Source: Psammoneis japonica
Taxonomy: Eukaryota
Length of the DNA stretch: 64,000 nt
Direction: 5' to 3'
Assembly: GCA_008632985.1 (NCBI GenBank)
Contig: QPGO01000035.1
Span: 545,899-609,898, forward strand
A program made the position numbers and the translations under genes. The notes below the pieces were generated by a model. The model was not told the origin of the DNA, did not search any database, and was given only the letters and a program-made list of their open reading frames with translations. Every line of letters begins with the position of its first letter. Position 1 is the first letter of the stretch. Of this stretch, positions 10 through 57,905 are shown one piece after another.

Positions 10-1460
10 TCAAGCATCAAGATTGCCGTCGTTGTCACTGGAACTGTATTCCTCAACAGTCGAAGACACCCCACAGCTATTTCCCTCCTGGCCAGCTGCG
101 CGACTTCCTACGGGCGGCGATTCTCCAAGACTAGAAACTTGATCACCTGAATCGTTTCCAATTGCCATAACCAAGTCTACGGGAAGCTGTTTTCCTCCAC
201 CTGCAGCCCATGCAACGGGGTTGTCGCTATCATAACACGCTTCTCGTAGTGGGGACACTGCAGTCCTATTCGAGTCGCTGCTGGACGAAGACGAGCCGTT
301 ACGTGAAACGTTGTCGGGTGAAGAGGCAGTACGGGCCTTTTTGTTAGCAGAAGGAATGATTTGATTATCGCGCTTCATCGATTCCAAAGCCCGCTTGCTA
401 GACCTGTTGACCCGTACGTTAACCTCACGGAGCTTCTCGTGCATCTCAGCTTGGTCACGGTCGCTCTTCTTTTCTGCCTCGGAAAGCCTTGTATTCAGAT
501 CTTCAACGCGCTCTTCCAGCCATCCGTTTCGATCTTTCAGCCATCCGTTTCGATCTTTCAGCCGTTTGATCTTTTCTTCTTTCTCGGCGTTTTGATGCTC
601 CAAAGAGATCAAGCGCTCACGATGATCAATAAGATTGGAAAGCTGCTGGACAAACGGCGCTCGAACATCAGGAGGGAGAACACCGACGAAGTGGCCGAAA
701 CGAAAAAAATGACGATCCCACGTTTCGTAATCATCCAAATCAGTATTCTGCAACTTCACAAAGATCTCCACGACCCTAACTATGGTCAGTGTCGAATCTT
801 TTTCGAAACCTAAGAACACGAAGTCATGGACAAGGGGTGAGCAATCAGTCGCATGGACGCCGTGGAAGTGTTGAAAAGAGGAACTTACCCATTCCAGCAA
901 CAGAAGATTCATAACTTTCTGATGCCATGACGGCTTTTCTTGGAGCGTTCGCCTTCTCTTTCTAACGGATTGAAGACACAAGGGAGATGCAAACAACAAC
1001 GTGGTCAGGGAAATGACAAGAAATCTGATGCGTCTCTGCTTTGCGCGGTCTTCAGTAAAACGGCTGCCGCGTAGAAATTGTACCCATGTCCACGTACTAC
1101 CCAAAGTAACGGCAATCAAAGGGAAAAGGGCGCTCATCTCGATACCGTAGGTAACGGCTGTCTTTCCCAGGGGGGTGACGAAGCGCTTTCAAGCTGGCGA
1201 TTCAAGAAAGAAATGCAGCCGGATTGCCGACACGTCGGCAGACAACAACATCTTCACAGCAAAAGCGACACGTCCTTGGATCCATACATGGCGTCACGTA
1301 CACGGAATAGTTCTGTACAAAGAGACCACGACACTTCCTCTCCACAATGAGTACAACAAGTCGAACTCACCTTTTTCTTCTTGCTAGCGGCGATCACGTT
1401 AGATGTCTTGACGGTGCGAGCGCTTGAATAGGACGCGACACTGATGTCGTCGTTTGCCAT
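10..1460 (-). CDS. Hypothetical coiled-coil protein, 3 exons (1371-1460, 889-961, 10-809; ~320 aa); member of a local gene family
   Basis: Canonical GTGAGT/GTAAGT donors and TAG acceptors join in frame (MANDDISVAS...KKKK|KEKANAPRKA...VAGM|GFEKDSTL...). The paralog at 34569-36315 has the same exon structure. A 21-bp tandem repeat (LKDRNGW) lies at ~519-562. Confidence 0.75.
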
Positions 1461-2699
1461 GGTAAGGGGTTATGTATCAGAGAAAGCTTGAGGTTTTGTC
1501 TTGATTGTGAGAGAAAGCGTTGGCGCCCGTCCAAGCTTGCCACGACCGATGGCTCGAAAGAAGTTTGCGAAAAGTTTTCAAGTGGGATTCTTGGGCGGAC
1601 TTTTCCTTCCTCAAAGGCAAAAACCATTCACGATTCTGTCACCGCTAAGAAGCCATGCGCTCAAGAAAGACAGGCTTTTCGTCTCCCCCCCTAGTAACAT
1701 GCCTCAATTAGAGCAGGTACGAAGTGCCTCCGCTCACCTGATAAAATACGAAATCTCTCGATCCTATGCTCATAGCTCATGCCACACAAACACCCAACAT
1801 GACATGTCTGCGCCATCATTTGAATACCTCTCGAGGATGTGGTACCGCTAAAATGAGCCTACGTAGCTGAACTCCAGAATGCTAAACCACAACCCATTAT
1901 TCCCTTGCGATGGTGCACACAACATGAAGCACCTTGCCTTCTCCCCACCCCACACCAACTACACCACCGTTGTCGGCCGCAATAGGCAAGCTATTCTATT
2001 AAATGCACGTTTTCGATCTTCCAACAAAACCGTTTACTTTCTTGAAATACACTATGGTAGAGCATCGACTAAGGGATACCGAGCATCGCACATTACTACA
2101 TCAACTCATCTATTTCAGATCGACACAACCAGCATCATGAGTCGAGATGAGAGATGAGAGAGTTTTCGTCCAGAGTGGAGAAGATACTGCCTATTTTCAA
2201 TACAGTATTTGTTTACTTATATGTTGAATGATGTGACCACTTGCCGGCATGCTCCGTCGACATACGGTGCTGTAATTCCGTCCTTCGCTTCAGGTGAGCC
2301 ATGCGTGACAGACGATGGAACGAGAGCAAAGTTAGTTCAAAGTAAAGAGCAAAAGGACAGAGATTTCAAGACTGGGTGAAAGAAGCCAGTGTTGAGAGTT
2401 CGAAGTTCTGCTGCAGGAGCTAAACATGGTGCAAAGTGGTGTGCCAGTGTAAATCAAATGGGGTGTCCAGTGCGTGGTTGGCATCGAATTGGGCTGCGAA
2501 CAAAAAACGGAAAAGCTGAGAAAAGGCAAAAACGTCGTGCAATCACACAGTTCAGCTCAACTCATTGGCATCCTCCTGCAGTCAGTGTTTAAATTATAAA
2601 GTGACATGTTCAGTGCCTTCATCCATGGGTCTCTCACACGTTGCGCTGCAGTGACTCGGTTCAACAACGCTCAGATTCATCGCCCGCCGTTTAGAGAGC

Positions 2700-4791
2700 C
2701 CTCTGACTCACTGGCCAATGGATCACTTGAAAGGTGATTCACACTTTTCCTTGTCATTGGAGGTGTTCAACTCCTCATTATCCAAACTTCCGCTGCTTTT
2801 CAAGCTGTTTCCATCAGAAGTTGATGCCCCCAGGCGATGCAGCACCGTGGGTGAGGCGGAGTCTCTTGAAGGGAGAGATGGAAGTCTCCACATCCATCTT
2901 TCATTCACGAGGCCACTTGTGACTTGCCATTGGTCCCGTGCAAGCCTCGCTCAGAAGGTTGTCTAGATCTGAAACAATTTTGAAGAGGGGGCATGACTTC
3001 CTTCTTGGGAGACAACGCAAAGGCGCCCTTTGAGGTTGCGGATTTGCTCTTCAAGCACTTCTCGACGCGTTCCAGCCCTAGGTGGGAGCTCGTAGTACTG
3101 ACGTGTGACAACAATAATTAAATTTTTATCATCCGTCGTATGTTTCGTACGTAGATTTCTACGTGTGATATTTAAAAAAAATTGTCCAGACTCGCTGTTT
3201 TGCGAAGCCCCAGACGTTTTATATAACAAATTTATAGAAACAATAATGCGCCAGTTACATTCTTCAATGTCTGAAGAATGTAACTGGCTAAGTAAAAAAT
3301 GATGTACTTCAATCATGTGCGAGTTTGTGCGTTCGCAAAATTGCCTCATTTTCTGTTGGCGATCATTGACATTCTAATTACCGTATAATTTTACTACGGA
3401 GCTCGCACGTAGAAGTCTACGGGCCCAATGTCACACGGATTCCCACCTACGTCTGGAACGCGTCTCTCTGTCTTTGGCAGAGAAAGTCGCAGCACTGCTT
3501 CTGTCATCAGTGGATTCAGTGTCAATGATGACCTTCACATTCACAAGTCTGCCACCAGCTTCAACATGCACTGAGGTTGAAGAGCTGGATGGCCTCTTGC
3601 TTCCGGAAGAAGAGTGGCAGTTCCTGTTGCCAGGGCTGCCACACTGCGTGTTGCTGGGAGCGACAGCAAGTTCATGATCCTCCTTGTCATTTGATCCATG
3701 GCAAGCCTCTGTCTGAAATGCACTGCGCTGCTTTTGACTTGCTTGAAGCTCCTCATTGGCATCATCTTGAAGGCTGCTGAGACACTCAACTTGCGCAGTG
3801 AAGGCTTCTTTAAGAGGAGCAACCTGCTGCCTGTGAAGCTCTTTGCAATGCTCTTCAATTTCCTTGTCATGCTCTTCAAGTTCTGCGCCGCACTCTTCAA
3901 GTTTTGTGATGTGCTCCTCATTGTTGCAAGCTTCTTCCCTTGATTGGTCAACACCCATCAACCGAAGGTGATGACTTTGATGAGTGGAGAGTTGCTCTTC
4001 AAATGATGAAGCCTGCAACTCTGGTGGAAGACATGCTGTGAGTTTCCGGCAACATTTGACGCAGTGCGTGCATCTCTTGTTGTCGCACAGATTGACCTTC
4101 TGGAGCTTGACAAAGGTTCTTGACATTGACTCAATGGTCTTGATCAACTCTGTTGTGATTTGAAATGCCAGCCACAAAGAGAAATCAAAACACATGAGCA
4201 AGGCACAAGGTGATCTTACGTGAGGAACAAGAATGGAAGAGCCCCACTTGCCCATTCCAGCAACACCAGATTCATCACATTCTGACAACATGATGGTCAT
4301 TCTTTGAGTGTTGGCCTTCTCTTTCCAATGGACTGGACACACAATGGAGATGAAACAACAACATGGTCAGCAAAATGACAAGAAATGGATGCGGGTCTGC
4401 TCTGCATTGTCACCCATCAAAATGGCTGTGGCACAGAATTTGCACCAAAGCCTGCAAAACAAAGCATGGTGATGGCAGAGAGAAAACCAGCGCTCATCTT
4501 GATCATTCAAAACAACAATGGTCATCTCTCAAGTCAATGATTCTGGAAAGAGACGCAGCCAGATTGCTGAAACGGCAGGTTTCCCATGACCACACGGCTG
4601 GTGCAGAACCCACACCTTCACAAGCCACACGTCCCATGAATCCATGCATTGTGCCATGACATGCATCAGATTGTCTTGCAGAGAAATCACAACACAAAAT
4701 GACTCACCATCTTCTTTGCCTTGGTGCTCACGTTGCATGTCTTGACGGCGCGATTGCTTGAAAACAAGACACTGGCATCGTCATTTGTCAT
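2700..4791 (-). pseudogene. Hypermutated paralog of the 10-1460 / 34569-36315 gene family, interrupted by a MITE
   Basis: Recognisable exons MTNDDASV...KAKK, KEKANTQRMTIMLSECDESGVAGM and ...TFVKLQ. The acceptor TAG is now TGG (~4325) and the donor GTAAGT is now GCAAGT (~4250). The 303-aa ORF has no Tyr. The 3' end is approximate. Confidence 0.75.
3064..3464. mobile_element. MITE, family A copy 1 (401 bp), TpA-rich and unmutated
   Basis: 24-bp TIRs GACGCGTTCCAGccctAGGTGGGA / TCCCACCTacgtCTGGAACGCGTC. 4-bp TSD TCTC (3060-3063, 3465-3468). Homologous copy at 48785-49179. Confidence 0.92.
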
Positions 4792-6685
4792 GGCAACAGA
4801 GTTTTGCATCGCTTGTGGTTTCATCTTGATTGCTGGACAATGAAGAGTGAGAGAATTCATTGGGGCATTGATGCTTGACATTCATGACAGATGGCCAGAA
4901 AGAGGTTTGTGAAATGTGTTCAATCAGGACTCCTGGCAGACGTTTCCTTTCTCACCACCCACATTGGCTTTGTGCACTCACAACATGCAGGAGAGTGCCA
5001 ACACTGATCTCGTGGACTTTCCGACCAACTGGTCTTTGAAATTCAAGAGTCAGAGGATCATTGAAAGGGTCAACAGCACACATGGGTGAGCTTGTTCTTC
5101 TCACAAATCTTGGCCCACATGTGTCAAACAACACCTGGTGCAACTGAGGAGACATTCATGATTCAGTCAACAGTGATCCATCACTGCTGCAGAGTGTTTG
5201 TTGCTTCATTTGTAGAGGCCTTCCCCACCATTGATTTTTGTTGCATCAACAGAAATGGATGAAAATGCATGTGTGAACAAGCACTGGCAGACAAAAGTTG
5301 GAGAATTGAAAAGGCTTTCCGTTGGCGCATCATGGACTGAGACGTCTGCTGCGCTCCGTGGAGAGCTCAAGCTGATGTGACACAGCAAGTTGGTGAGTCG
5401 GAATGTTTGGCTGTCAAAGCTCCAATGCTTCTCACAAATCCAACAACAGGATGGGAAAGTTTTGCCACTGACTTTCACAACTTGTCTGTTGCTCCAGAAT
5501 TCATTTTCTTGATGTTGCGGCTGCCTGGACTCCGATGCAAGATCCCTGACATCCCTGTTGTTTGGCTTGCCACAGATTTTTAATTGTCCCTTCAACACCT
5601 GCCTGCAAAATGACAATTGAGTCATTGATTGATCAAAAGAGTTCACAGAGCTCGTCTTCAAGTTTCAAACAACCCACTCCAGGTGTGTTGCAGCCACACC
5701 ACAAAAATCAATCATCGCATGACAGTTTCCACCTTTGCGAGCAGCTGCCGACTGAGTGATGGTTTGAATCATGGCAGTTTGCCAGATTGTCCTCTCTTGC
5801 TCTTTTTGCAATGACAATCATGCAGGAGGAGTTGCAGAGTTGAACTCAATCCACAGGTCCGTTGCCAAGGCGAAGTTGGGTTGTTTCCTGGGCAGCTCTA
5901 GATTGACGACTGTGATTTCAGTGGAGACACGCACTGCAAAAGAGACAAACCCTTGCCTTGTGTGCTTGCAACCCATTGTCAGGGCAGCAAAGAGCTTGTG
6001 CTTGACAGCAAATCTTTCGAAGCACGCTGATGCCATTCGTTGGTTGCCCCAATTGAGACAGGTTGGGGAAATTTTTTCCAATGAGTTGGCATGAGTCGAC
6101 ACCATGTCTGAGGTGGAAAGTGGACGAGCTCACTGCATGTTTTGTCAATGGACAGGGAAGGATGTCAACAACATGTGGAGTGATGCCACATGTGGCAGTT
6201 TTCTGTGCTTGCACTTTCAAGCTCGACGTTTGGTTGCTGTTTGCTCAACAACTCCAGCTGTGCACCCACCATTGGATTTTGTGTTTGAGCCTTGCAACAC
6301 TTGAGAGAAGCACTGGAAAAGCAGGGGCAGGGATGAGACTGGGTGACACTCAGTGGAGACATCATTCTCATCCGTGACAGCGAGATGTCTCACTTCTCCC
6401 CGCCACAACCATCGTCAACCCGTGCCCCGTGCGCTGAGTGCGTCGCGCTCGCAACTTGGGAACTGAGGAACTCTCAACGAACTGCGATGCGCGTGATTTT
6501 CGCGCGACGAGAACTCGCGCCGAAAAAAAAAACTCGGAGCGCGCGCGCTGAGCACACAAACTCCAATCGGAACCCGGAAACTTTTCGGTTCTCGCTGTTC
6601 GCTGCGCCTGTTCTCTGCAAAATCACATCAGAACGCTCTGCAAAAAAGACGTTACCAAAGCAACATCGTCATTGGACCCATCACC

Positions 6686-9080: not shown

Positions 9081-9235
9081 GGCGCTATCATCAGCATTGC
9101 ACTCTGCAAATTCCCTACCTAGCGTTACAATTCCAAAAACAAACGCCTACGACCAGGGACTTCACAGTTTATACATAACTTGTTTCGTAAGTTGACGGTA
9201 CACAAGTTGTAAAAACACTCATCAATGTAGAGTTG

Positions 9236-13757: not shown

Positions 13758-13793
<36 letters not shown>

Positions 13794-14163
13794 CAATGTG
13801 GCTGCTCAGACATGGCAATCTGACACCCTCATGGCTTGTCTCCACAAGTGCTTGGGTCTTTCCCAGGCATGCTGTTGAGGCCTTGATGAAATGGCACCAA
13901 TGCCGTTCTTTGGCTCATTGTGTTGCTCTCTGTTTTTGAATTTCAATTTTGTGATCAACAACAATGTGCAGAACATCATGTGCAAAGGGCACTGTTGTTC
14001 CCTTCCTTGCCACTTCAGCATGCAGCATCGCACCTCACACCAATGCACCTGCGTGTGTGCGTGGCCAGAGACAATGCATTCTTTTGTTGGCTCTGCCCCC
14101 AACAACATTGGCACATTCACAATGCTTGCAGCACTTCACGTTTGCAGCATTTGGTCTGTGCTC

Positions 14164-14952: not shown

Positions 14953-15060
14953 TGATGAGGTGTGAACGAGCCGCCACACACTTGGTTTTTGTGCTGTGAG
15001 AGAGCCCCCTTTGCTGCACAACTTGTCTGTGCAGTTGCCAAGGTCAAGCTTTGGGAGCAC

Positions 15061-15324
15061 ACAGCAGTGCAACCCATGACTGCTTTTGCCTTGCTGAGAC
15101 AAACACGGTGTCCATGAATTGGATTTGGATGCAACCGAAATTGCGGGGGCCGCTGGTGCGGGCAAGACACAGTTGTGTCTCGAACTGTGTTGTGCCAGTG
15201 CGTGTGAGACATTTGAGTCTTCTAGCAACCAACAGCAGAATCTAAATCAGGAAAGTATGGCAGTAAATGACAAGGAGAATGCATGTCCAAGGTGCTACAG
15301 AGCTCTGTGCGCATCCATGGGTGA
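15061..15324 (+). pseudogene. Captured 5' fragment of the XRCC3-like gene (copy of ~8142-8449 with an internal deletion)
   Basis: High nucleotide identity to the gene; encodes TEIAGAAGAGKTQLCLELCC...NACPRCYRALCASMG where the gene has NTYPRYYRALYVSMG. Confidence 0.92.
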
Positions 15325-18048: not shown

Positions 18049-18199
18049 GGTAGAAGCATGAAGCTGTTGTATCGTACGATATCAAGGATTGAAGAACTGC
18101 ACGCGATCTTTTATGTTCTTTTGAAGTGATCTTCAATCGTCAGACACATCTTAAAAGACTCCTGGTACAAAAAATGCGTAGAATTTGTGTAAGAAAGAT

Positions 18200-34568: not shown

Positions 34569-36315
34569 CTAGTTGGTGCGAATCCTTTTCCCAGGAGGTG
34601 TGACTCGATCCGAATCTTCGTCCTTCTTCGACTTACGACCCAAAACTCGTCGAGCCTGGTTCTTTGTCTCGCGCAATCGCTTTCGACTCGCTTGAAGCTC
34701 CTTGTGAGCCTGGGTCTGAAGGTTATCCAAAATCGTGCACAATCTTAAATGTGAATCGCGTTCCTTCTTGGAGCCCTTGCAAAGACTGATGGCAAGACCT
34801 CGTGGTCCGCAGTTGCCAACCATGACCCCCCCTTGATTAAAGAACTTCTTCAGACTGTCGGTGAGCTCTTGCTTGTCGTTCGTATTCTCAACCAACTGAT
34901 GAATCCCTTCGACGGCAGAGTCGGAGAGAGATATCGCAGTTCCGTCGTTAGCAAAGTTCTTGTCAACGAAGACTTCCATATCAAGAAGATCACCACCAGC
35001 TTTGGTACGCGCGGAGGCTGCCGAGCTGGAAGAGCTGTTGCTTGTGGGCGAAGACGAACGGTTCGGGCTGCCGAGCTGCCTCTTATCAGGCGAGATTGCC
35101 TCATCAGGACTGACGTCGTCCTTTAATTCAAGGCAAAGAGCAGATCGAGCCTTCCTCTGGTTTTCGCACTCTCGCTTTTGACTTGCTAGGAGTTCCTCGC
35201 GAGCAACATCTTGAAGCTCGCTGAGCACTTTGACGATGCCAGCACGGACCTCGGTTTCCCTTTGTTCTACAAGCTCTTCGCAACGCTCTTCACTTTTCCA
35301 AGCCTCCTCCTTGCGACGCTCTTCACTTGCTTGAGCTTCCTCCTTGCGACGCTCTTCGCTTTCTTGAGCTTCCTCCTTGCGACGCTCTTCACTTTCTCGA
35401 GCTTCCTCCTCGAAGTGATCGACATCCATCAACCTACGGCGATGCTTCTCATGGGAAGAGAGCTGCAACAGAAATGACGTCTGCAACTCTCGAGGAAGGC
35501 GATTGACAAGCTTTTGGTAATGTTCAATGCACCGACAAGAGACTTCGGCATCGTTTACATCGGTCTCCTGGAGCTTGACAAAGGTTTGACAGATCTCTGC
35601 TATGAGTTTTACCGGTACCACATCTGCTGTACCGGCAAAATCACAAGGAAAATGAGTCGTCTGATATACGGAATAATTAGCGGCAACAACCAGCAAGTCG
35701 GTTGGAACTCACCCGTTCGAGCAATAGATACGTCACTGTCCGATGCCATGATGGCTTTCCTTCGTAATCGTGCTTTCGCTTTCTATTGAAACAAAGTGGA
35801 GAGGAAACAACGACGTGTATGAGAAGAAATGACAAGACACGGGAAGCCGCTTTTTCGGGCGGTCGAATCTGTGGGAAATGGTTGTCGCGTAGAATTAGTA
35901 CCCAAGTCTACGACCCCAGAACGTAACGGAAAAATGCAATCCATCAACGTTCTCCAAATGAAAACGGCTGTCGCGTAGAATTTGTACCCAAGCCTACGAT
36001 CAAGGCAGCAACGGAAGACTCCAAGACGAGCGATGCGAAAAGCGTTCCAAGCCAATGCGTCTCGGCCGCCGCAGCGTCACTACGGTACAAGAAGCACAAC
36101 TCAAGAACTACACGCAACCCCTCCATTGAACGCAAATCACGTAGCGAGTCGCTGACAATAGTTTTGATTGTATGCAAAGGCATGGCAAATGTCGGAAAGA
36201 GCCCTCAATAAAACGAATACATCAAACTCACCTTCTTTGCCGCGGCGCTCACATTGGATGCCTTGATCGTTCGAGCGCTCGTATGAGACATGACACTGGC
36301 GTCGTCGTTCATCAT
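34569..36315 (-). CDS. Hypothetical coiled-coil protein, 3 exons (36232-36315, 35713-35782, 34569-~35626); paralog of 10-1460
   Basis: GTGAGT donors, TAG and CAGCAG acceptors, and the same intron phases as the 10-1460 gene. 33-bp tandem repeats encode EEAQESEERRK (~35300-35410). Confidence 0.75.
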
Positions 36316-36341
36316 GATAAAAGGGATGGCAAGGGGGTGCG

Positions 36342-37200
36342 GGGGAGACTCTGCTTTCTTTACGCTGGGACGAAAAGTGAGTGAAAGCATTGGAGCATCC
36401 CAACTTGCCACGACCGTGGCCCCATCGAGGTTTGGGGACAGTTTTCGACTGGCATTCGTGGAAAGCGATTGTTTCTCGATCAAATCAAAAGTCAAAGCCT
36501 TACAGCAAAATGTCAAGCTTCAAAACATTTGTCTCTTGATTGAATTTTCGTTGCTCTGCTCATGATATAGACTAAACTTCAAAGAACTGGTATCACAAAA
36601 CTCACAATACCGCATTCACAACAGACAGCAGCATGCCTCCAAGCACCCGCCCACAGCAAATACAAAAGCTTTTCGTAGTGCCATCATGTTCAGTTCGGTT
36701 CGCGCTTGTCCGCTTTTTGATGGCCCGAGACATGTTGCACCAGCGTTGCTCCTGCTTTCTGAGCCGCTTTCTGAAATCCCGAAGTAGTTTTTCTGCAATT
36801 TCTCATCTCGATCCGCATCTAGAAGAATATCTCATCCTCCACCGCAGCGGTTCTGCTAATCACACTGGAGAGATCACTGAAGGAAAGTGTTGTGACAACT
36901 GACGAAACATTACAATGGGTCCTGCTGGATACCGAACAGGTTGCGAACGAGGCAATCACTTCTTCCTACTCCCTGAACACAGTGCATGATGATTCTCGCA
37001 ATCGCTCTTTTGTCTGTTGTCGCATCAGAGTCTGAATATTCCAATTCACTACTGTAACAATCCACTCTTTTTTATCGTCGTCACTCGTAAAGGAGGACAT
37101 CTTCACAATGTTGAGAGAACTACCCTCGCCACCAGCAACAACAACATCATCATCGGCGTTGTCATCGTTCATCGCTCATCGTGTACCGGTATTTCGTTTC
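36342..37200. repeat. Segmental duplication, copy 1 (pairs with 45707-46573; homology continues into the PP2C-like gene)
   Basis: Long near-identical colinear sequence, e.g. gtgagtgaaagcattggagcatcccaacttgccac ... gagatcactgaaggaaagtgttgtgacaa. Confidence 0.92.
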
Positions 37201-37352
37201 TGCTATTTCCAAGTTCGATGTTCGCACATCTTTTAGCATGTTAGCATGGACGCCTTTATTGGATCACATGTCCCACATTGATCGACGATCGATCATCGTT
37301 CACACCATGATCCTCTTGCCTCTTGCCTCCCTCGCTGTGGCATCCGACAGTC

Positions 37353-37855
37353 ATGAATGTGTACGAGAGTCAGCTGAGATCCAAGGCCAGGAAATGCCTT
37401 GACCATTGCATGGACGCATTTGTTGCAACACTCGCGGCTGTGTTGGCGTGGTCGATCATGGGCGGAGCTGCAAGCATCGTGGGTCATGGGTGGACGGAGC
37501 AGCAGCTCACGGGTGGCCAGTGGGCTGCACGCATTCTTTGCAAGGCCGTCCAAGAAAGTCTCACCCATGGTATGATCCTATCCGGAATTGCAAAGATGCA
37601 AAGACTCTGAATTTGTTTGCCCACATTCCAGGCACCCAAGGAAAAGAGCAATGCGCCCCGAGCACTCGAGGTTTGACAAAAACAACCAGAACAACGTGCA
37701 TCAGTGTCATTCATCCTGCATTCCAGACACTTGCATCAGGCAATTCAAGTTGGAGACTGTCAAGCTGCCTTTGTGAACCAGAACGGAACAATTGCAAAAA
37801 GTCTCCAGAAATTCAAAATGTGTGTTCGACAGAGAGTCACGACGGAGGACAGGGC
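37353..37855 (+). pseudogene. Truncated, frameshifted, TpA-mutated copy of the PP2C-like gene at 57906-58787
   Basis: MNVYESQLRSKARKCLDHCMDAFVAT...QLTGGQWAARILCKAVQE matches the intact gene. It breaks off at the DIRS-like relic. Confidence 0.88.
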
Positions 37856-37899
37856 CGGTGGAAAACAGGCCCAGCTTCTACACACCTTTTACACAGATT

Positions 37900-47312: not shown

Positions 47313-48784
47313 CGTGGATGTCGGATGCGTCGGCACCCGTGACGCGCACGATTGCGCGCACGAGCATCTTCGCCTGTTCATCACATCTCGCATCGATCCA
47401 CAATCCACACATCAATTCAATTCAATCTTAAAAGTTGCGCCGCTGCTTTCAGCGGCTGCCTGAGGCTCAGTCATGCCTGATTTGTTCTTTCAATCCACAA
47501 CCATGGAATGGAGTCAGAGCGTCGGTGCACAAAACAAGTGCAGCTGCGCTTGACAAGTCATGGAGCGCTGGAAGACTTTTCCCATTCTCGTCATTTTGGT
47601 CAGTCTGTGGGGAGGGCAGTGGCCACACGTTTCGCCATTCCCACTGCCACTGGCCAGTGTCTTTTGAAGTCCATGTCTTCTGTGAACACTTCCTCCATGG
47701 ACTTGGAAAACCACCGGGCATGCTGGGGTGTGTCGGATGGGTGGTTGAAGAATTCTGCACATTCCTCTTCAATCCGCCCATCAAGGATTCTGTTGACAGT
47801 GAGTCTTGATTCCGAGGTTGGAGATGCAGCCGCTCGCATCCGGTTTTGCCACATGTCCCATGCCGCATTCCACAGCTGTTGAATTGGACCTGCCACCCAT
47901 CGTTCGCCTGCATTCCGACTCTGGATGAATTCGCAGTGCGCCTGTTGAGCTGCGGCCCATTCCATTGCTGGGAATCCTCGCACCAGAGCATGATCGCCAA
48001 GTTGTTCTTGTGCTGTGAATGCCTGTTGTGCTTGTGGATGGTCCGATGTTGGTGTGGGGCAAGGAAGCTCATCGTGCCAGCTCTTGATGATTCGCATGAT
48101 GCCCTTTCGTAAATCTGGATGAGTGAAATGATCCGTCATCCATTTCTCCAGGCTGTCAACCTTCTTCTGCCAAAGTTCCTGTGCCACAAAGGTCTTGCAC
48201 TGGAGCACATGGTCCACCCCATTTTCGTCTTCCCCGCATCTCGGGCATGCTGCGCTTTCCACCTTTTTCCAGCAATGCGCGTTGTTGTTTGTGGGAACAA
48301 AGCCTGTGTTCCACTTTGGTTGCCACAATTGTCGGAAGGTTGGACACCTGCGCATTGCTCGTCCCAGTGCTTGCCAGTCAATGTTCACATGAGTGTGTTC
48401 AACCTTTAGCTTCTTCTTCCAGCAATCTTTTGCAGATGGACCGCAAATGTGATCAAGGACCCTTTGTTCTTTCCATGAGGTTAACGTCGTGTCACCCAAC
48501 CGTGCCATCCAGACTGGTTGTGCAATTTCATGCGGAGCTGTGCCTTCATGCTCTCGCAGGGCTTCCCAGTGCGACTTGGCCAAAAGATCCATTTCAACAT
48601 TCAGTTGTTCAACGTAGGACAGTTCTTGCAGTGAGATTCTCTGATCCTTGTGGCCTTCCACCTCAATTGCCTCCACTGTCACAGGGAGTTCCTGAACCAC
48701 ACTCCTGATGGTGTGAATCAGATCACAGTTGGTGAGAGTCGGATCATCGCAGGAATTGCAAAAGCACGTTCTCAATCCAAGGTC

Positions 48785-49179
48785 GACGCGTTCCAGATGC
48801 AGGTGGGAATCCGTGTGACATTGGGCCCGCAGAATTCTGCGTGCGAGCTCCGCAGTGAAATTGTGCGGCAATTAGAATGTCAATGTTCGCAACAGAAAAT
48901 GAGGCAATTTTGCGAACGCACAAACTCGCACATGATTGAAGTGCATCGATTTTCACTCAGCCAGCTGCATTCTTCAGACATTGAAGAGTGCAACTGGCGC
49001 ATCATTGTCTCCATAAATGCATCATGTAAAACGTCTGGGGCTTCGCAAAACAGCAAGTCTGGACAATTTTTTTTAAATGTCACACGCAGAAATGCACGTG
49101 CGAAACATGCGACGGATGACAAAAATTGTTTGTGTCACACATCAGCACTGCGAGCTCCCACCTGGGGCTGGAACGCGTC
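48785..49179. mobile_element. MITE, family A copy 2 (395 bp), heavily TpA-mutated, nested in LINE RNase H
   Basis: TIRs GACGCGTTCCAG....AGGTGGGA and TSD GGTC. Inverted relative to 3064-3464. Removal restores the ACDCD-LGLRTCF frame. Confidence 0.93.
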
Positions 49180-49744
49180 GGTCGCAATCACATGCCAGAA
49201 TGATCTTCCCTTCACTGATGTTGCATTCATTGCACAGGCTTCATGGAAATGCCACGATTCCGAAGATTCCCCCCAGCTCCCCTCTGCAAGGCGCGAGGTC
49301 TGCAGCATCTCCCGGCATCTGATTCACTCCCTTGCACCGATGTGAATGTCCTTCACAGGGTGGCAGGATCATGCCCGCCATCGCCAATCCATCTTTATGA
49401 GATCCATCCACAACACTCAGGGCCGTCCCATTTTCAATTCCCTGAACTGGTGCCGACAGATCCGGTTGGTGTCCATGCGGAATGAACGACCAGTCCCCGC
49501 AATTGAGAGCTCTCCCTGGATCTGTCACTTGATGGATCGGTGATGTCCCTCTGTTGGTGTTGTCCTGGGACCGCTCTTTGTGACCTGAGTTGGTGGGGCG
49601 TCGTGAGGCATGATGTCGACGGCACCATTTGGTTGACATCGTGACCATCTGTTTCGTCTGTTTTGCGGCAGTCTTGTGCACAGTGCAATTGTGTCCTCTT
49701 CCTTGAAGCACACTCTGTCATCCGATTCCGAATGCCACCATGCT

Positions 49745-50832
49745 GGGACACACGGCATTTTGTCGCATTTGGCAACATTTTCTTAAATGAATTGATGATT
49801 TGTCGCGAAAAGACGTGAATTGCGACAAAATGTCCGGGTTGGCGACAAACGGGACAGAAACATTGTTTGATTGAGTTGCAAAATGATCAATGTCATCATT
49901 TGTGACCAACCTGAACTTTGGCGATGTCGTTTCAATGAGTTGGGCAATTGACAGAATTTGGCGATCGATGTCATCGACGAAAATTCATCCGACAAAATTT
50001 GTCGTGTGCGACAAATTTTGTCGCATCCGACAAATTTTGTTGGACATCCAAGAAATTTGTCGGATGTCCGACAAATTTTGTCGGCGTGCGACACAACACG
50101 ACAAGACAAGACACGACACGACACGACACGACACGACAAGACAAGACACGACACGTCACGACACGTCACGACACGTCACGACACGACGACTCACGAACGA
50201 AACACCCACGCCCCCCGCACACGCCAACCGCTAACGTCTCCGTTGACACTGCCGGCATGTCTCTTTTGCATGATGATGCAAAGCGACGATCATCCGCTCT
50301 CGGCGGTCTCCATGCTCTCGTCAATGCCGGGACAACATCGTACGCTTCTACACAGTGCAACGGAATGTGCCGGCATGTGTTGCTGCGCTGCACCTTTCAT
50401 CAGCGCGACTGGGCACTTCTGAATGTTGGGGAGCATTGCGTTGTCGGCATGTCGCAAATGTCCATCTGTCGGCATTTGTTGGCTCTTGTCGGCGTTTGTC
50501 GTACGTTGTTGGGGTTTGTCGGGGCTTGTCGGGGTTTGTCGGGGCTTGTCGGGGTTTGTCGGGGTTTGTCGGGTGCGACAAAATTTGTCGTATCCGACAA
50601 AATCGCCAAAACATTGGTCAACAAGTGCAGTCTTCGCCGAAAGTTAAATTCATCATGTGGCACTGCAGTTGACACAACGTTTGTGTTTAGGACATGCCAT
50701 CGCCAATTAAATGATGATTTTGTCTTGTTTATCGCCAACGGTTGAAATTTGTCTCAAAGGGCGTTTTTCACGACAAATCGTCCAATTCATTTGTGGGAAT
50801 GTCACAATTGGCGACAAAATGCCGTGTGTCCC
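49745..50832. mobile_element. Non-autonomous TIR element (~1.09 kb) with internal CGACA/TGTCG arrays, nested in LINE
   Basis: Perfect 22-bp termini GGGACACACGGCATTTTGTCGC / GCGACAAAATGCCGTGTGTCCC, longer imperfect TIRs and a near-TSD TGCT/TGTT. Removing the element plus 4 bp restores EPTT-WWHSESDDR. Tandem arrays at ~50090-50190 and ~50510-50573. Confidence 0.88.
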
Positions 50833-51373
50833 TGTTGTCGGTTCCTGCATCCATTTTTCGAGAGGTCTCCGAAGTCGGAGTTGCTGGTTCCTGCCTGTGG
50901 CTAGGAAACTTGTTGTCAGTGCTTCTTGCCACAGCCGCCAGCACGGTCGAGAGGGACATCCTGCCTTCGGCCAGTTGTGCGTTGTCTGACAAGTTGCCGT
51001 GCCGTGCCAATGATCCAGAAGCATCCTTCTGCCATCTCCTGTCACTGCATCCGACAGCCGCACCGCATTCAGCCACATTCTGCGCAGGTTTGTCTTTCTG
51101 AGATGATCACCTTTGCAGCCGTGTGCTTCGAATGCTTCCATCAGAAACTTGTCATTTTGCCGCAGCAGTGGAATCGAGGTCTTCAGTGCGAGCAATTCAA
51201 TCGAGTGTGATGAGCAGAGTTGCCAAAGTGATTTGATCCAGGTCTTCGTGGCTAAAATTGCGAGTTTGTTGCAGTCCAGGGAGAATGCTCTGTCTCCATG
51301 CCCGAGTTCAAGTGTCATTGTCTCGTGTGCATGTTGCATCTCTCTCCCTGTCATCGACGATGAGTCCATTTGT

Positions 51374-51762
51374 GACGGGCTCCAGTCCCAGGTGGGACTT
51401 TTTGTGACATTTGCCCCACAGAATTCTGCGTGCAAGCTCTGTAGTTCGTACTCTGGCCAATGGACATGTTTGTCTTCGACATAAAAAAAACGGCCAAGTT
51501 TGCAGCACATCTGTCCCTGTTCGCACTCGAAGTTTTGGATGACACGCCTGCCCTGCGCCATTCTTAAGACACTCGAGAATGGCATAGAAGAAAAAAATGT
51601 TAAAAGTTGTTCAATGGACAGCCTGACAATTGCACCATAAAATCATGCAAAATTTCGCCAAAATCACGTAGAAATGTACGTGCGCGACATACGATGCGAT
51701 TCAAAAAACTGTCGATGTCACAGCTCAGCAGTGCGAGGTCCCACCTAGACCTGGAACGCGTC
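51374..51762. mobile_element. MITE, family A-related subfamily (389 bp), partly TpA-mutated, nested in LINE
   Basis: Ends GACGGGCTCCAGTCCCAGGTGGGA / TCCCACCTAGACCTGGAACGCGTC and TSD TTGT. Removal restores FLQQ-MDSSS. Confidence 0.9.
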
Positions 51763-52350
51763 TTGTTGCAAAAAGACAGCAACTTTTGCAATCCCTTGTT
51801 TCACAAAGAGTTCCAACAGGCCAAGTCCGTTAAATCGTTTGGGCGCAAAAAGAATTTTCTTCGGGAATGACCGAGGACAACCCACAGCCGGCAGTGCCAC
51901 TTCGTGCAGCGGTTTCTCTGTTCACTGACACTCAGCTTTCGCAAGAGATGTGGCAGCCAGTGGATGTTCAACTGATTTCACAATTCCGCCCGTCAGAGAA
52001 AACCAGGCCTCCGTTCGGTTTAAATGTCCGCATCGCACTTGATCCACCCATTTTCCCACTTTCATCGCCATTGCCTCGATCTGCGTGTCCGAGTTCCCTT
52101 CTAGCGCAATGTGCACACCCAATGTCTCTCTAGCTTCTGACACCTCCATTCTCTCTGCCGTTCTCCTGTTTCCCTCATGATCCAGTGGGGTGATGTCGCC
52201 GGGTGATTCATCCTTGTTCTGACAGGTCCAGCGGTCATTTACCCACTTGAAGGATGCGAGGGACCAGTGGCTTTTCTCTGGTGCAAGTGCACCTCCTGCA
52301 GCCCTGATTCCTCCTTCCCAACAATTGGACATCTCTTGGATCTCCTGCAG

Positions 52351-52785
52351 CATGCCTCCCCACTGGACAACACGGCGAGACCATGCACAAGCCTCTTGTG
52401 CGTGACAACGCAGTGTGTTGTCAACGCGCACCTGGGAAGCACGACCACAGGAGGGTGTGGCTCCAGGTCTTAGGAAATTCCAGAAGGATGCTAAGAGAGC
52501 ATCCGTGTGAAGCACACTAGCCCGTCGTCTGGCCCACGATGGCAGCGTGATTCCACACGATGACATCACTCGTGCACAGCGCGTGATGGCTTGATTCGCA
52601 CAATCCACAATGCGAACACACAATCGATTTGATGCGATCCAAATGCGAACGAACAGGGATTTGGCAAGATTCCCTGTTCGCACTGTCCCACTTTCTCTGC
52701 TCTAAACTGGCTCACAATTTTCACAGCGACAAAGTCGCAACACATCTTCTTTTTCAGCGCCTGGCACATGCATGGGGCACTCCAT
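52351..52785. mobile_element. ~435-bp insertion of unknown type just after the LINE RT FVDD motif
   Basis: ORF2 homology stops at STCEDVL and resumes in the same frame at LQEIQEMSNCWEGG. Flanks CAG/TAG (or CAT/CAT) suggest a 3-bp TSD. TIRs are weak. Confidence 0.6.
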
Positions 52786-55700
52786 TAGAACATCTTCACA
52801 CGTTGAGTCATCAGAGCCCGGAAAGCATGGAAGATCTGTGTCATCGACAAACATGCAACACACATGGTGGTGCGCGTTCTTCGAGATTGGTGTTGTCGCT
52901 CGGATGCCGCAGCCGTCTGCTTTGAGCACATTGATCATTGGAATGCCAACCACGAGCCAAATGGCTGGTGCAGCTCCATGGCCTTGAAAGATTCCTTGCA
53001 ATGGGATCTCGATGGCACCGTGTGGTTCTTCCGAGTCCCCGCACGCTGTTCTCATGCAGTGCTGCATCTGCATGAGTGTTCCAAGCATCATGAAAACCTC
53101 ATCTTCTCTGGCTCCAAACCTTCTCATGCATGGTGCTGCCACCGCATGCAACATTCGGTCACAGCACAATTTAGCGTCCGTGCTGTTGATGGCTCCTGGT
53201 TGATGTGATTGGCAGAACATGTCTCCCGTGAGTGCCTTGTTGAGAGCACAGAGAATTGCTCGATGTCTCTTCCTGCTTCCGCACGCTTCCCATGGAACAG
53301 CTCTGCATGTCTCGGCATTGTTGACAAGAGCCCGTGCGATGTGCTTGTTCATCTTGTCACACATGGCGTCGAACAATGCAATGATTTGAAGTTTCTTAAC
53401 GTGTGATGAGTCCATTTTCTTGGGGATCATGACATCTGCCGCCTTTGTCCAACACTCAGGTGCGTGTCCATGCTTGGCCGGAATGGCTGACACACATGCG
53501 TCAAATTCCACCAGAGTCTCGTCTGAGCAACCTGCCTTGTAGTCCGAGAAGGTCAGTCCGAAGGGGCTGCTGGTTGTGTGACCTTTCATTTTCTTCCAGC
53601 CAGTGACATGCTCCTCAGTGGTGCATTCCAAATGAATTTCCGGAAGTGGTGGTTGTGGACGCTTGAGCTGTTTGATGTATTTTGCTGCATGTTCATCCAC
53701 TCCTGGAGGAATGCTGTGGGTTCCCTCCAGTGCTCTTTTTGCAGCTGGAGTGTCCAAATTGCAGCCGAAGTCTTTGAGGAGAGGGTCCTTCATGAATGGA
53801 ACCGCATGCTGACTTGTCCGTGTTTGGCTGCATCTCGATCGTCCTTCACCCTTGCATGCCTCTTCCATTCCATCTTTTGTTGAGAACACCTTGTTGACCC
53901 CGTTGGGTCCTGGTGCCGTCACTGTTTGGAGAGCCGGTCGAGGTTTGCCAGTTGCTCGTTTAATGCAACTGAACATTCTCTTTTGTCGACAGCTGTGCCG
54001 AACAATTCTTTCCTCTTTTTCCTGGGTCGTGCCTTTTTCTTCTGCTGGTTTCGCGCAACGGATCTTGAACTCGTCTTGTCCAAGCTTTGCAGCCTTTTTC
54101 TTCAGTTTGTGATGTCTTTTCATTGCCATTTTATGTTCTGCCAGTGCTTGATGGGGTCGAAGTCGAAGCGCATCCGTTCTTCCTGTGTGCTGCACACGTC
54201 TGTTGATGATCTTCATGCTGACTCTCCGAAAATGGTGCAGCTTGTACACCAATCTCCATAAGTGAATCTCTTTCCTCGCTTTGTTGATGACGTTGCTCGA
54301 TTCGACCTCGTTCATGTGGAGCTTCCTGCATTGTGCTTTTGCCTCCAGCCTTGTTTGATGGTTTTGTTGGAAGATCCGCTTGTGTTCTTGTTGTTCTGCA
54401 AGTCCAAAAACGTCAGAGTTTTCCAATCGAATGGCTCTTCGCAGCAGATCATGTTTCAAGATTTCTGTCACCACGAGCTGCACGCACTTCTTTACAACTT
54501 TTGGGTCGCCTAATTTTCCTGCCAGTCGGTCTGAGATAGTCTCCGAGAGCTTCGGTGGATTGAAGCCCAGTGCACCAGGCTTTGAAATGTCAATCCATAA
54601 AAGGCGGTGGTCAGAGGTGCAGTCGAATTCTCCGAAACCTGTCATTCCTGCCCTGGTCACCTCCAAGGCTGGCGATGTCAGAATGGCATTGACCGGCATG
54701 TTAGAACGATTCTTGTCGCATGTTGCCACTGCTGGAAGATCCGGATGCGTGGTCTTCAGTGCGTCGATCAGATGAAGAGTCCTGCACCATGCAGTGAAGC
54801 TTGTCCCTCGAACATTTTCATTGAAGTCGCCTCCAACTGCTGTTGGGTCACCCTCTTCCTGCCATTTCTTGATGTGATGCACCAAGTCTTCTAGCACCAC
54901 TTGTCGTGGACAGCGCACATCATCCTTGGAAAGGAGGTGTGTTTCTTGTTGAGAGTAAACTCTGCCAGGATTAGCTTGGGTGTCTCTAACTGGTCGACAG
55001 ACAGTGACGATCCTTGTGTGAATGCCTGATTTGCCTTGCAGTCTCGCCCATGTCCATCTACCCAGTCCCGACGGGTCTTCACCACTCAAAATTAGGTGGT
55101 GGTTGACATGTCTGGTTCATAGATGTCCCACCCCCCCGCATTGCCTTTTGTTTTCTGTCGAGTGGTGCTTGTTTGTTGTGACGAGAGTGCCATGTTTTGA
55201 GAGGCTCCTCCAGCGGTCTTTCCATTGTTTGTGTTTAGGAATTCATCTGAAGTTCAAGTTGATCTCTGTCAAGCCCATGAAGTCAGAATGTTGTTCAGTG
55301 ATCCAGTTCATCATTCCTTCATGCTTGTCCTCAGCAGAAGGTGACACTGGAAGCCCACCAACATTGTGGAAAGCAATTCTGATGGCATTGTGCCATTTCA
55401 TCAATGTGCTGTCACCCCAAGCCTCATCCAATTGACGACCAGCAGTTCCTTGATTAACGTCCTCCTTTTGCGGCAGTCGTCGTGGCCGCTGAGGACGGCA
55501 GGGACTGGGGATCTTGACCCGCTCCCTCGGCCTGAGAGCTGGGATGGTCTTCCAGGTGTCCTTGCTTGGGATCCTTCTGGGCCAGACCATTGTCTTGGTC
55601 TTTTGCTGCTCGTAGCTTTTCCAATTCTTGAACTGGCGCTTCGTTCATTTCTTGCACCTCCTTTAGTTTCGCTCGGGTTGAGGGCGTGGTTTTGACAGAT

Positions 55701-57905
55701 GCGTCCTCCTCTTGTTCACACTCGTGATGATTCTCCAGATTTGCCAGATCAAAGGTTGCCGAACGTCTCGTGGCGGATGCATGCTGTGTGTCATTGTCCT
55801 CATTTCTGAGATGACCAACAGATTCCACATCAGCGGCTTGAGCCAGTTTTGCAGCAACTTCCTGTGCTGCTGCAAGTGGGCCTTGTGTTTCCTTCTGCCT
55901 GCCTGAATCTTTCTGAGCGTTCCCATCAGAAGACTTCCGTCTTTCTGTTCCATCCATTTGTGCTTTCTCGTTGGTCCGCTGTTCCTCCACACCCCATGGA
56001 TCTTCCTTGATCATGTCTGACAGCATTTCACTGTCCTCAGACGTTGTGAGTCCAGTTTCTGGATCGCATTCCGAGTTCTCGCACATGGCGATCCCTGCAG
56101 CCGTGAACCATGGTTCTGCTGATGCTCCGCAGACATGCAGACATTCTGGGGCGACGTTGTCAATCATTTGTGAGACTTGGTCCACCGATTTCCTTGGGAA
56201 TGTCATCACATGATCGCTCGGTCTATTCCACTTGACATCCAGGTGATGGATCAAGGGAATGATCTTGTCCAGATTGGTGGGATCCGGCATCCGTTTCTGC
56301 ATGAGATGCTGTCGTAGTGTCATCTCTCTACCAGTGACTCGCATCTTGTGGTCCGGATTGTCAAGAAAGCTGAAATCAAGTTGTCCAATGACTTTCTGGC
56401 AAAAGAAGTGTTGTCGTTTTTGAAGCTTGTCGATGTTCTCCTTGGTTTTGTCTGAAGCGCACTGCGTGGTGGGGTTCGAGCAGCACGGAACAAAGCGCAG
56501 CTCTGGTCCCAATGCCTTCTTCCTGGCACCAACCCTCCACAGTCGTTCCACCGCCAGCTTGACTTTGTGTGCCTTGCTTGACTCGACAACAATGTGAAGG
56601 GCTTCCGGATTCTTGTTTGGCACATTTCTGTCAAAGGTGGGTCGTTTTCCATCCTTTCCCGCTGTGGATCTCCATTGAATGCCAAGGCTGTCGTAGTCTC
56701 TGCCCAAGCCAAGTGATTTGCAGAATTGTCTGTGCAGTGTTTGCTCACTCATTGTTTTGGTGCTCTGATGTGACCATCCGATGCATTCAAAACGGGTCAA
56801 TTGACAAGGCACAGGGTTGCGTCCAATGGAGAATTTGCCTTTTTCCATGTCTGCAAACATTCCTGAAAGTTGCGAGCCATGGTTTGCCACAGTTCTGGGA
56901 CTGCAATCTTCTGCCACCTGGACAAGGCGCAGCTGACAGCATGTTGTGTGTTCGGCGTCAACTCTTGGATTGAGATGGTCCACCCCCAAGAAGGCACTTG
57001 GCATTTCTCTTTCCTTTGCCAGTCCTTCTGGAACATCTTCTGGAGAGGCCAGTTCTCCGAAAGTGTCCTCAAGATCAGGATCCCATGTGCCAATTTGGAC
57101 TTCTTGTCCAAGCATCTCTTGCATGATCGTGGGTGCTTCTCTTGGTGCGGAGGCCACTGCTTTCAGGGGCTTTTCGGATGGTGGGATGGTCAGGAATGCG
57201 TTGTGATGCAACTGACTCCAGGGAATGCCTTCAGCATGGTCAGTGTCTTCATCGTCATGTGGTGTGTCGGTTTGTTGCGACTCTTTGTCGTTCGTCTCTT
57301 CTTCATTTCCGTCATTTTGTAGAGTGTCTGTTTGCTGAGACTCTCCTTCATTGTTTCCTCCTCGTTTTCTTCGTCGGATTCCGTCGAATGATTCTCACTT
57401 GTAAGATGTTGAAAGGTTTCCTCTTCGTCTGAGGATTCTTCATGCATGTGATCTTCTTCTGTGATTGCAATTTCCGCCGGAGCGATTGCCTTTGAGTTCT
57501 CGTCCTTTTTTGTTTTGCCTTTGAGTTCTGTTTTTCCTGCTTCGCGCAAAGGTTTTTCCAACGTCAGGTGCAAGTTTTTTCTCCTTGTTGTTGTCTTCCT
57601 TGGTACGTGAATTTTGCGTAGAATTTGTACGAGTGTTCTTGTTTTTTACGGTCGTCCACTCATTGCTCTCATTATCCATTTCCTCGTTGTGAGATCTTTC
57701 AGTTGTTTCGTTTATCTGTCCTTGTCTCCTTTGCGTGGAGAGATGTTTTTCTTTCCGCCGGTGCTTCTGCGTTTTGTGCCTGCCATTGTGCGATTTTTTT
57801 AGCTTGTTGTTTGTACGTACGTGCGAGTTATCCACAATCCACACATCACACCATGATGGATGATGGATCTGGATCTTGCCACATCCCTCGCTGGATCCGC
57901 CAGTT

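Follow-up and report, generated by a model that had tools for sequence, protein, structure and literature searches.

What has stripped nearly every TpA dinucleotide (TA) from one member of a small gene family, splice signals included, while its two paralogs in the same stretch of DNA keep theirs? The question is posed by 64,000 nucleotides of Psammoneis japonica (contig QPGO01000035.1, forward-strand positions 545,899 to 609,898; hereafter the window, in whose coordinates all positions are given), which hold the affected copy, P2 (about 2963-4791, minus strand), together with the intact paralog P1 and the intact-looking paralog P3 (Table 1). The explanation that we favour, with a probability of roughly 0.8, is that P2 is a pseudogene lying in a TA-free block, and that such blocks are the footprint of a process that changes A:T to G:C specifically at TpA.

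Splice signals of P2 and its paralogs

An earlier sequence-only reading of this locus held that splice sites of P2 had been destroyed by mutation at TA, and that the AG acceptor fixes the direction of the change. The bases that it quoted are all present where it placed them (P1 at 962 and 888, P2 at about 4325 and about 4250), and the P2 splice-site letters do differ from those of P1 and P3. On the minus strand the P1 intron-1 acceptor reads CCGTTAG/AAAGAGAAGG, with AG at 963-962 and exon 2 starting from 961, and the intron-2 donor reads GGAATGG/GTAAGT, with GT at 888-887; the corresponding P3 signals are CAATAG/AAAGCGAAAG (AG at 35784-35783, exon 2 from 35782) and CGAACGG/GTGAGT (35712). The P2 acceptor has GG in place of AG and its donor GC in place of GT, and the GTGAGT intron-1 donor at 4707, which holds no TA, has survived as the same reading maintained. 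The GCAAGT form of the GC donor is used by a minority of eukaryotic introns; since the P2 donor can thus still act, only the acceptor change is certainly fatal. Given the near-total loss of TA in this copy, the two changes are not an independent coincidence.

Contigs of three sequence runs, compared with 20 kb of the window, bear on the use of the P1 signals; P3 lies outside those 20 kb, and its introns are placed from shared structure only. Run X1 is DNA-like and covers everything at a depth of about 61-66. Run X2 is of unrecorded kind, and because its contigs lie on genic parts only, at depths from 2 to about 2000, against the even cover of X1, it behaves like cDNA. Two joints in X2 contigs over P1, one from 961 to 1371 (skipping 409 nt) and one from 807 to 887 (skipping 79 nt, with the cut displaced by +2), have CT..AC ends, that is GT..AG on the gene strand, and match the predicted introns at 962-1370 and 810-888 exactly, while X1 contigs over P1 contain no such joints. 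The introns of P1 are therefore in use, as the prediction of a gene at 10-1460 supposed, and the result that would have refuted the sequence-only reading, predicted introns left unused, does not hold for P1. A DNA retrocopy as the source of the joined form would lead to the same conclusion, having itself come from a spliced mRNA.

P2 is collinear with P1 and P3 through exon 1, intron 1, exon 2 and exon 3, keeps their intron positions and carries no transposable element (TE) domain. Its lesions comprise, besides the acceptor and the donor, a 402-bp miniature inverted-repeat transposable element (MITE; copy A) in exon 3 and the loss of all Tyr codons, the first 280 codons of the conceptual coding sequence encoding no Tyr, 15 Cys and 12 His. 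Once the MITE and one AGA target duplication are removed, the frame is open for 312 codons to the TAG at 2965-2963, with no frameshift, premature stop or frame-breaking indel; an open frame of 311 codons would be expected by chance in the P2 block with a probability of about 4e-5. Homology to its paralogs, retained intron positions and disabling lesions mark P2, as judged from its letters, as an unprocessed pseudogene inside a TA-free block, presumed silent. X2 has no cover over 2669-6003, 11340-15341 and 18010-20000, which we do not use as evidence of P2 silence.

The P2 letters also stand in short-read data, since a 3101-nt X1 contig covering 3657-6757 reproduces them with one differing letter (at 5995) and at a depth of 65.6, against 61.2 for its neighbours. 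This bears on the suggestion that base calling or library chemistry misreads a modified TpA base in heterochromatin as G or C. X1 probably comes from the same sample as the assembly, and its agreement with the window is to that extent not independent; but its contigs, built from short words, show normal depth here, MITE copy A reads its 32 TA normally inside the block, and the sites are cleanly TG or CA, with TE frames altered coherently, which is the behaviour of heritable sequence. We regard such an artefact as highly improbable.

Direction of the change

P2 contains 2 TA in 1493 nt, an observed/expected ratio (o/e) of 0.02; P1 has 47 in 1617 nt (0.45) and P3 has 49 in 1926 nt (0.41). In alignments scored so as to tolerate transitions, the 21 TA of P1 aligned with P2 read there TG at 7 sites, CA at 7 and something else at 7, and the 36 aligned TA of P3 read TG at 14, CA at 10 and something else at 12, so that none of the 57 is kept (TG 21, CA 17). 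By way of control, 11 of 31 P1 TA are still TA in P3. At the few sites where P1 and P3 agree on TA (5 in number), P2 reads TG at 4 and TT at 1, and it keeps 11 of the 14 TG and 16 of the 21 CA on which they agree. The three-way alignment thus bears out the direction TA to TG or CA, with AG and GT present in both P1 and P3.

Direction can also be read from the MITE family. Copies A and B differ at 26 TA, all of which are TA in A; B has CA at 12 and TG at 14 of them, with no reverse case and no CG. By base, the differences from A to B are T>C 15 and A>G 17, other classes contributing at most 3 each (C>T 3, G>A 1), and 6 of the 32 A>G and T>C changes fall outside TA. Over roughly 400 bp, the changes in copy B amount to 26 of 32 TA, 3 of 27 CpG and about a dozen other differences. 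The TA form is the common form of the family, because words of copy A occur in X1 at depths of 28,000-50,000, against about 62 for single-copy DNA; many different contigs break at 3464/3465. A 36-nt MITE word had no match among metagenome contigs.

Two long interspersed nuclear element (LINE)-like retrotransposons in tandem provide a further comparison. Their ORF2 (P0121) has 39 homologues at E<=1e-3, many with RVT_1 (PF00078) and/or Exo_endo_phos (PF03372) domains, although the window ORF2 itself matches PF03372 weakly, at E 0.01, below the cut-off; the LINE was recognised only through this homologue search, Pfam on the block open reading frames (ORFs) having given no TE domain. The FVDDTD motif is invariant in the alignment. 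At the eight columns with Tyr in at least 60% of 15 outside homologues the window copy has no Tyr, but Cys at 4, His at 3 and Met at 1, whereas conserved Trp (8/8 columns) and Lys (13/13) are retained; Cys and His are the products expected from TAY to TGY and TAY to CAY (Y, pyrimidine). Related LINE loci in metagenomes have a TA o/e of 0.56-0.86 in 80 of 80 cases, with no 1-kb segment below 0.31, a baseline that is silent on how widespread the process is, since the peptide patterns used favour intact copies.

Could the TG- and CA-rich state be the original one, the genes and MITE A having gained TA by C to T change at CpA/TpG, in the manner of repeat-induced point mutation (RIP)? MITE copy C, which sides with B at 10 of the 11 sites at which neither of them matches A, would fit such a history. 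Against it stand the used AG and GT of P1, which are common to P3; the Tyr residues conserved in 15 outside homologues that are Cys or His here; the 80 of 80 outside LINE loci with normal TA; the abundance of MITE copies in the TA form; and the ordinary TA o/e of the genes (0.56, against 0.07 in the blocks). This reversal is scarcely credible. The letters therefore support the derived state of TG and CA, as the sequence-only reading proposed from the acceptor and, in the same sense, from the donor: the used P1 signals agree with four tests that make no use of splice sites, namely the 57 aligned TA, the MITE pair, the LINE Tyr columns and the 80 LINE loci. The splice-site pair is in this respect an internal proof of direction, backed by the spliced contigs.

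Specificity and likely mechanism

Eight TA-poor blocks occupy 36,450 of the 64,000 bp (57% of the window), and the change is confined to them. TA o/e in individual blocks is 0.04-0.12, with TG and CA at 1.4-1.9; pooled values are TA 0.07, TG 1.69 and CA 1.73, against a TA of 0.56 outside. AA is not lowered (1.22, against 1.14 outside), and block G+C is 0.46-0.51, the same as in the remaining window. GC-biased gene conversion was rejected as a cause on the grounds that block G+C equals that of the rest and that the changes are confined to TA, and errors of the polymerase eta type at WA (W, A or T) on the grounds that AA is unaffected. Both strands are affected, and TAY is preferred over TAR (R, purine): within blocks 26% of TAA and 16% of TAG are retained, against 7% of TAC and 3% of TAT. 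By density relative to non-block DNA, surviving TA stands at 0.62 for TTAA and 0 for ATAT.

A process with this footprint would act on DNA, converting practically every TA within a block by an A:T to G:C transition that leaves TG or CA according to the strand hit; the outcome is never CG, since a single hit abolishes the TpA on which recognition depends. Applied to P2 it would turn TTAG into TTGG and GTAAGT into GCAAGT, leave the TA-less GTGAGT and ACAG alone, change Tyr codons to Cys or His and not break the frame. The same process would have acted on two gene fragments as well as on the two LINE-like elements with their nested MITEs. An RNA copy step is not involved, given that the introns of P2 are retained and that MITEs are DNA elements. 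The process is probably enzymatic, and we favour deamination of adenine in 5'-TAY-3' DNA, the resulting hypoxanthine pairing with C; the mirror alternative would be a modified thymine in 5'-RTA-3'.

CpG decay forms a second layer on P2, added to the loss of TA, and MITE A was inserted afterwards, its 32 intact TA inside the block indicating arrival after the block had been mutated. CpG o/e is 0.33 in P2, against 1.13 in both P1 and P3, and the 24 CG on which P1 and P3 agree read in P2 CA at 12 sites, TG at 4, something else at 6 and CG at 2. Four of the blocks have a CpG o/e of 0.16-0.24 and two have 0.46-0.49, while the two LINE blocks stand at 0.65-0.82. The loss of TA and that of CpG are separable, since the block with the LINEs and MITE B is TA-poor at a CpG o/e of 0.65-0.82, and MITE B has 25 CpG against 27 in A.

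Several points weigh against the explanation that we favour. Six of the eight blocks have no recognisable origin (11451-15250, 18201-23150, 27301-34350, 37251-42150, 62351-63950 and the P2 flank), and Pfam on 95 block ORFs of at least 110 aa gave no TE domain at E<=0.01. A strand rule, YTAY to TG and RTAR to CA, held at only 15 of 24 sites and is not convincing. Polarisation within the P family rests on few sites, the count of 57 TA comes from alignments that tolerate transitions, and the short reads that repeat the window's letters probably share its sample. A burst and a slow steady bias are not separable here, and some copies are only partly mutated (11 TA in MITE C, 9 in the PP2C-like copy). 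Finally, MITE C has the outcome of B at 10 of the 11 sites where both differ from A, for which simple parsimony would make TA the derived state in copy A; we think it more plausible that outcomes are determined by context (GTAG to GCAG, TACG to TGCG).

Target of the process

The sequence-only reading extended the process from TEs to duplicated host genes. That copies of host genes are hit is upheld by P2, with its introns and without a TE domain, and by two fragments derived from neighbouring genes, one Rad51-like and one PP2C-like. The first shows 5 TA to TG, 2 to CA and 2 to AA, with none in reverse; the second shows 9 TA to CA, 8 to TG and 3 in reverse, besides CG to CA 13 and to TG 8. In each of these two pairs the mutations are limited to the copy that lies in a block or next to one. 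Ordinary gene copies are thus not exempt. The label of host gene rests, for the P family, on the splicing of P1 and the lack of TE features, since no homologue was found either in a word-indexed search with P3 exon 3 or with a three-sequence profile against 1.84 billion representatives; P1, P2 and P3 are a three-member lineage-specific family.

Duplication as the trigger fared less well. A true analogue of RIP would detect duplicates and mutate the copies, P2 being hit as a duplicate of P1 and P3, and it is the case that all mutated sequences that can be polarised belong to repeated families (the LINEs, MITEs B and C, P2 and the two gene fragments) and that the block pattern is, from general knowledge, like that of RIP-affected fungal regions. 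However, P1 and P3 have escaped, and P2, at 12-16% transversions from them, is an old paralog; the Rad51-like and PP2C-like pairs are mutated on the block side only; an 880-bp duplicate at 91% identity has 25 TA in either copy; MITE A keeps all 32 TA although its family numbers hundreds of copies; and the P2 block runs 1.4 kb past the paralogous part. Some of these contrary points might be explained away by selection against mutated essential copies, by length thresholds or by timing, but a homology trigger appears improbable. It is the domain of silenced chromatin, rather than duplication as such, that is the likely target, given that P1 and P3 are intact, that only block-side copies are mutated, that neither member of the 880-bp pair has suffered and that the unrelated flank of P2 is TA-free as well. 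TA is kept in DNA beside active genes, including the introns of P1 and P3 and the sequence upstream of both (1.1 kb in the case of P1).

Dedicated defence or slow bias

How fast and by what agency TA is lost in such chromatin is a separate matter. One possibility, which we hold tentatively and at somewhat less than even odds, is a dedicated genome-defence enzyme that edits adenine (or the paired thymine) in 5'-TAY-3', a 'reverse RIP' of silenced chromatin. As part of the same tentative proposal, transposons, nested MITEs and silenced gene copies would be inactivated within a short time, and TAA and TAG stops, Tyr codons and TA-containing splice signals would be removed, G+C and reading frames being left intact.

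The other possibility is that there is no dedicated system and that heterochromatin has a slow regional bias of mutation or repair, for example through mispairing of a modified TpA base or biased mismatch repair, which would build up over long periods in any DNA free of selection. Graded states accord with this, CpG o/e ranging from 0.16 to 0.82 and partly mutated copies retaining 11 TA (MITE C), 9 (PP2C-like copy) or 5 (Rad51-like copy), as do the extent of the blocks, which occupy most of the space between expressed genes, and the clear presence of methylation-driven CpG decay, a similarly slow process. The TA rate of MITE B, in contrast, is tens of times the background and well above the CpG rate; P2 suffered no frame-breaking indel in 312 codons while all its TA and the greater part of its CpG disappeared; and non-coding DNA beside active genes retains TA. 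We consider a slow bias rather unlikely, and even if it were the case a TpA-specific A:T to G:C activity must still exist.

Relation to known hypermutation systems

RIP, in Neurospora crassa and other filamentous ascomycetes, hypermutates DNA by a transition tied to one dinucleotide, C:G to T:A at CpA, which raises TpA and lowers G+C; it depends on cytosine methyltransferases of the RID/DIM-2 type and takes place before meiosis. The window resembles RIP in that transposons and gene copies are riddled with changes, in that kilobase blocks of skewed composition lie beside normal genes, and in that both strands are hit. It differs in the change itself, which here is A:T to G:C at TpA (T>C 15 and A>G 17 in the MITE pair, against C>T 3 and G>A 1), so that TpA is destroyed with G+C at 0.46-0.51, and in the organism, a diatom and not a fungus. 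Instead of the raised TpA/ApT index of RIP, the blocks show the opposite (TA 0.07, TG 1.69, CA 1.73), and instead of a duplication trigger with both copies mutated, the duplicates here are unequally affected or untouched, although selection or timing could mask a trigger.

TEs of diatoms are methylated. Decay of methylated CpG, which is general among eukaryotes with CpG methylation, is the likely source of the second layer seen in most blocks and in P2, where 16 of 24 shared CpG read CA or TG; low CpG o/e is found only in affected DNA (P2 0.33, against 1.13), a pattern from which methylation itself may be presumed. CpG decay does not touch TpA, and in the block with the LINEs and MITE B the TA are lost with CpG almost intact.

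The enzymes ADAR and TadA/ADAT2-3 convert adenosine to inosine, which is read as G, and favour adenosines that have a uridine on their 5' side, the natural site of TadA being U-A-C-G. This resembles the preference for TAY seen here (TACG to TGCG), and we treat it as a lead only: these enzymes act on RNA, while here no RNA step is apparent and the strands are equally affected. The one-strand bias of ADAR-type editing is missing both from the DNA transposon (TG 14, CA 12) and from the intron-bearing P2 (TG 21, CA 17). APOBEC3 proteins offer a parallel as deaminases whose context-specific hypermutation inactivates mobile elements, but they act asymmetrically on cytosine in minus-strand cDNA and reach only elements that are reverse-transcribed, whereas A:T pairs are changed symmetrically here, in a gene copy and a DNA transposon as well. 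DNA polymerase eta, in somatic hypermutation of immunoglobulin genes, makes A to G changes after a 5' T (the WA motif). WA includes AA, but in the MITE pair only 6 of the 32 A>G and T>C changes lie outside TA, and AA o/e is 1.22 in blocks against 1.14 outside.

To our knowledge, targeted hypermutation of silenced DNA takes essentially one form, cytosine to thymine (RIP, its CpG-directed relatives and APOBEC on cDNA), and we know of no natural A:T to G:C hypermutation of eukaryotic DNA. A literature search, in those parts of the sources that it reached, returned no description of TpA-directed hypermutation or of TpA-free repeats, in diatoms or elsewhere. The process is real in this sequence and apparently undescribed. 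Its footprint is the mirror image of the cytosine-to-thymine forms and extends over more than half of a 64-kb diatom window. If it is enzymatic, there should be a DNA-modifying activity of defined specificity (TAY), which comparative genomics could trace and in vitro assays could test, and an enzyme that edits 5'-TAY-3' would be a natural DNA adenine base editor.

Other features of the window

The window is diatom nuclear DNA. The best matches of a CDC20-type ORF (60054-61673, minus strand), at up to 83% identity, are among diatom-named proteins (Odontella, Ditylum, Attheya, Thalassiosira), and other ORFs represent ordinary eukaryotic genes: S-adenosylmethionine decarboxylase, a lactonase, an ankyrin/ion-channel protein, and the Rad51-like and PP2C-like genes. 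Searches over the whole window gave no Rfam match and no tRNA gene.

Table 1. Coordinates of the P family, the surrounding block and the repeated elements discussed in the text
Feature	Position	Strand	Remarks
P1, intact paralog	10..1460	-	exons 1460-1371, 961-889, 809-10; 321 aa open; introns 409 and 79 nt
P2 exon 1	4708..4791	-	84 nt, ATG at 4791
Intron-1 donor of P2	4702..4707	-	GTGAGT, no TA, unchanged
Former intron-1 acceptor of P2	4325..4326	-	CCATTGG/AAAGAGAAGG; GG, against AG in P1 and P3; TTAG to TTGG (TA to TG)
P2 exon 2	4252..4324	-	73 nt; Tyr codon TAT of P1 is TGT here
Former intron-2 donor of P2	4246..4251	-	GGAATGG/GCAAGT, GC at 4251-4250; P1 GTAAGT, P3 GTGAGT; TA to CA
Intron-2 acceptor of P2	4150..4154	-	AACAG(/AG), no TA, unchanged, in frame with exon 3 from 4149
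P2 exon 3 up to MITE	3465..4149	-	conceptual coding sequence open for 280 codons if spliced like paralogs
P2 exon 3 remainder	2963..3062	-	TAG at 2965-2963
P3, intact-looking paralog	34569..36315	-	exons 36315-36232, 35782-35713, about 35626-34569; about 404 aa
TA-free block around P2	3465..6370		5 TA in 3465-6652
P2 block, gene part	3465-4957		TA o/e 0.02
P2 block, flank of no recognised origin	4958-6370		TA o/e 0.03, CpG o/e 0.31
MITE copy A	3063..3464	+	402 bp; terminal inverted repeats GACGCGTTCCAG..; 3-bp target duplication AGA; 32 TA; in P2 exon 3
MITE copy B	48785..49180	-	nested in LINE ORF2; 4 TA; CpG 25, against 27 in copy A
MITE copy C	51374-51762		interrupts LINE; 11 TA
Two LINE-like retrotransposons in tandem (endonuclease and reverse transcriptase)	47630..57394	-	interrupted by MITE B and MITE C
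Copy of Rad51-like gene fragment (of 8143-8449)	15062..15324	+	edge of TA-poor block; 5 TA, against 16 in gene
Copy of 5' part of PP2C-like gene (of 57874-58373)	37321..37856	+	9 TA, against 33, counted on padded aligned spans 37250-38100 and 57800-58650
Control duplicate	36339..37217	+	880 bp, 91% identity to 45703-46573; 25 TA in each copy, neither mutated
Intron-1 motif	P1 about 1040-1085; P2 about 4400-4446; P3 about 35860-35905 and about 35955-36000	-	

The LINE copies have a TA o/e of 0.10-0.12 and a CpG o/e of 0.65-0.82. An ORF1-like frame (55457-57394, 646 aa) and the ORF2 frame (52705-55116, 804 aa) are open despite the hypermutation. Five TA-poor and mostly CpG-poor blocks (11451-15250, 18201-23150, 27301-34350, 37251-42150, 62351-63950), 22.3 kb in all, contain only short internal repeats; no Pfam domain and no similarity to the LINE family was found in them. 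Long ORFs are frequent in blocks (the 95 of at least 110 aa include 21809-22798, 47603-48871 and 50710-51642), and since TAA and TAG are gone there, they are composition artefacts and not genes. For annotation this means that blocks yield long false ORFs that mislead gene callers, and that TE proteins become unrecognisable to Pfam.

The MITE family is of about 400 bp, with ends GACGCGTTCCAG.. and ..CTGGAACGCGTC and target duplications AGA, GTC and probably TGT; copy C has only the ends and subterminal parts in common with A and B. A fourth P paralog beside MITE B, which purine/pyrimidine-coded self-comparison had suggested by extending the homology of A and B into P2 exon 3, was rejected: a transition-tolerant alignment found similarity only within the MITE, and purine/pyrimidine coding gives many chance matches at 75-80%. 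The first copy of the control duplicate starts 24 nt upstream of the P3 start codon, and there are shorter relatives at 47102-47293.

A 280-bp CpG-dense stretch with no TA (6371-6650; 34 CpG, o/e 1.57) separates the P2 block from the next gene (ORF 6497-7405, with X2 cover from 6913) and is possibly an unmethylated promoter island that marks the block edge. Over 1-2000, which takes in P1 and the DNA upstream, X1 has two sequence versions at a depth of about 60 each, with differences at many scattered sites that follow no TA pattern, and a single version at about 62-66 over the P2 block and 8332-12424; the two versions may be allelic, or P1 may have a recent second copy.

Intron 1 of all three paralogs shares a motif of about 30 nt on the minus strand, GGTAC[AT]AATTCTACGCG[AG]CA[AG]CC[AG]TTT, which occurs twice in P3 and in which TA and CG are turned into TG in P2. 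It had no Rfam match and may be an intronic regulatory or RNA element. Exon 3 carries in-frame tandem repeats, two KDRNGWL-coding units in P1 (540-600) and about three EERRKEEAQ-coding units with a 66-nt period in P3 (35274-35410), and by its sequence the family looks like a fast-evolving coiled-coil protein.

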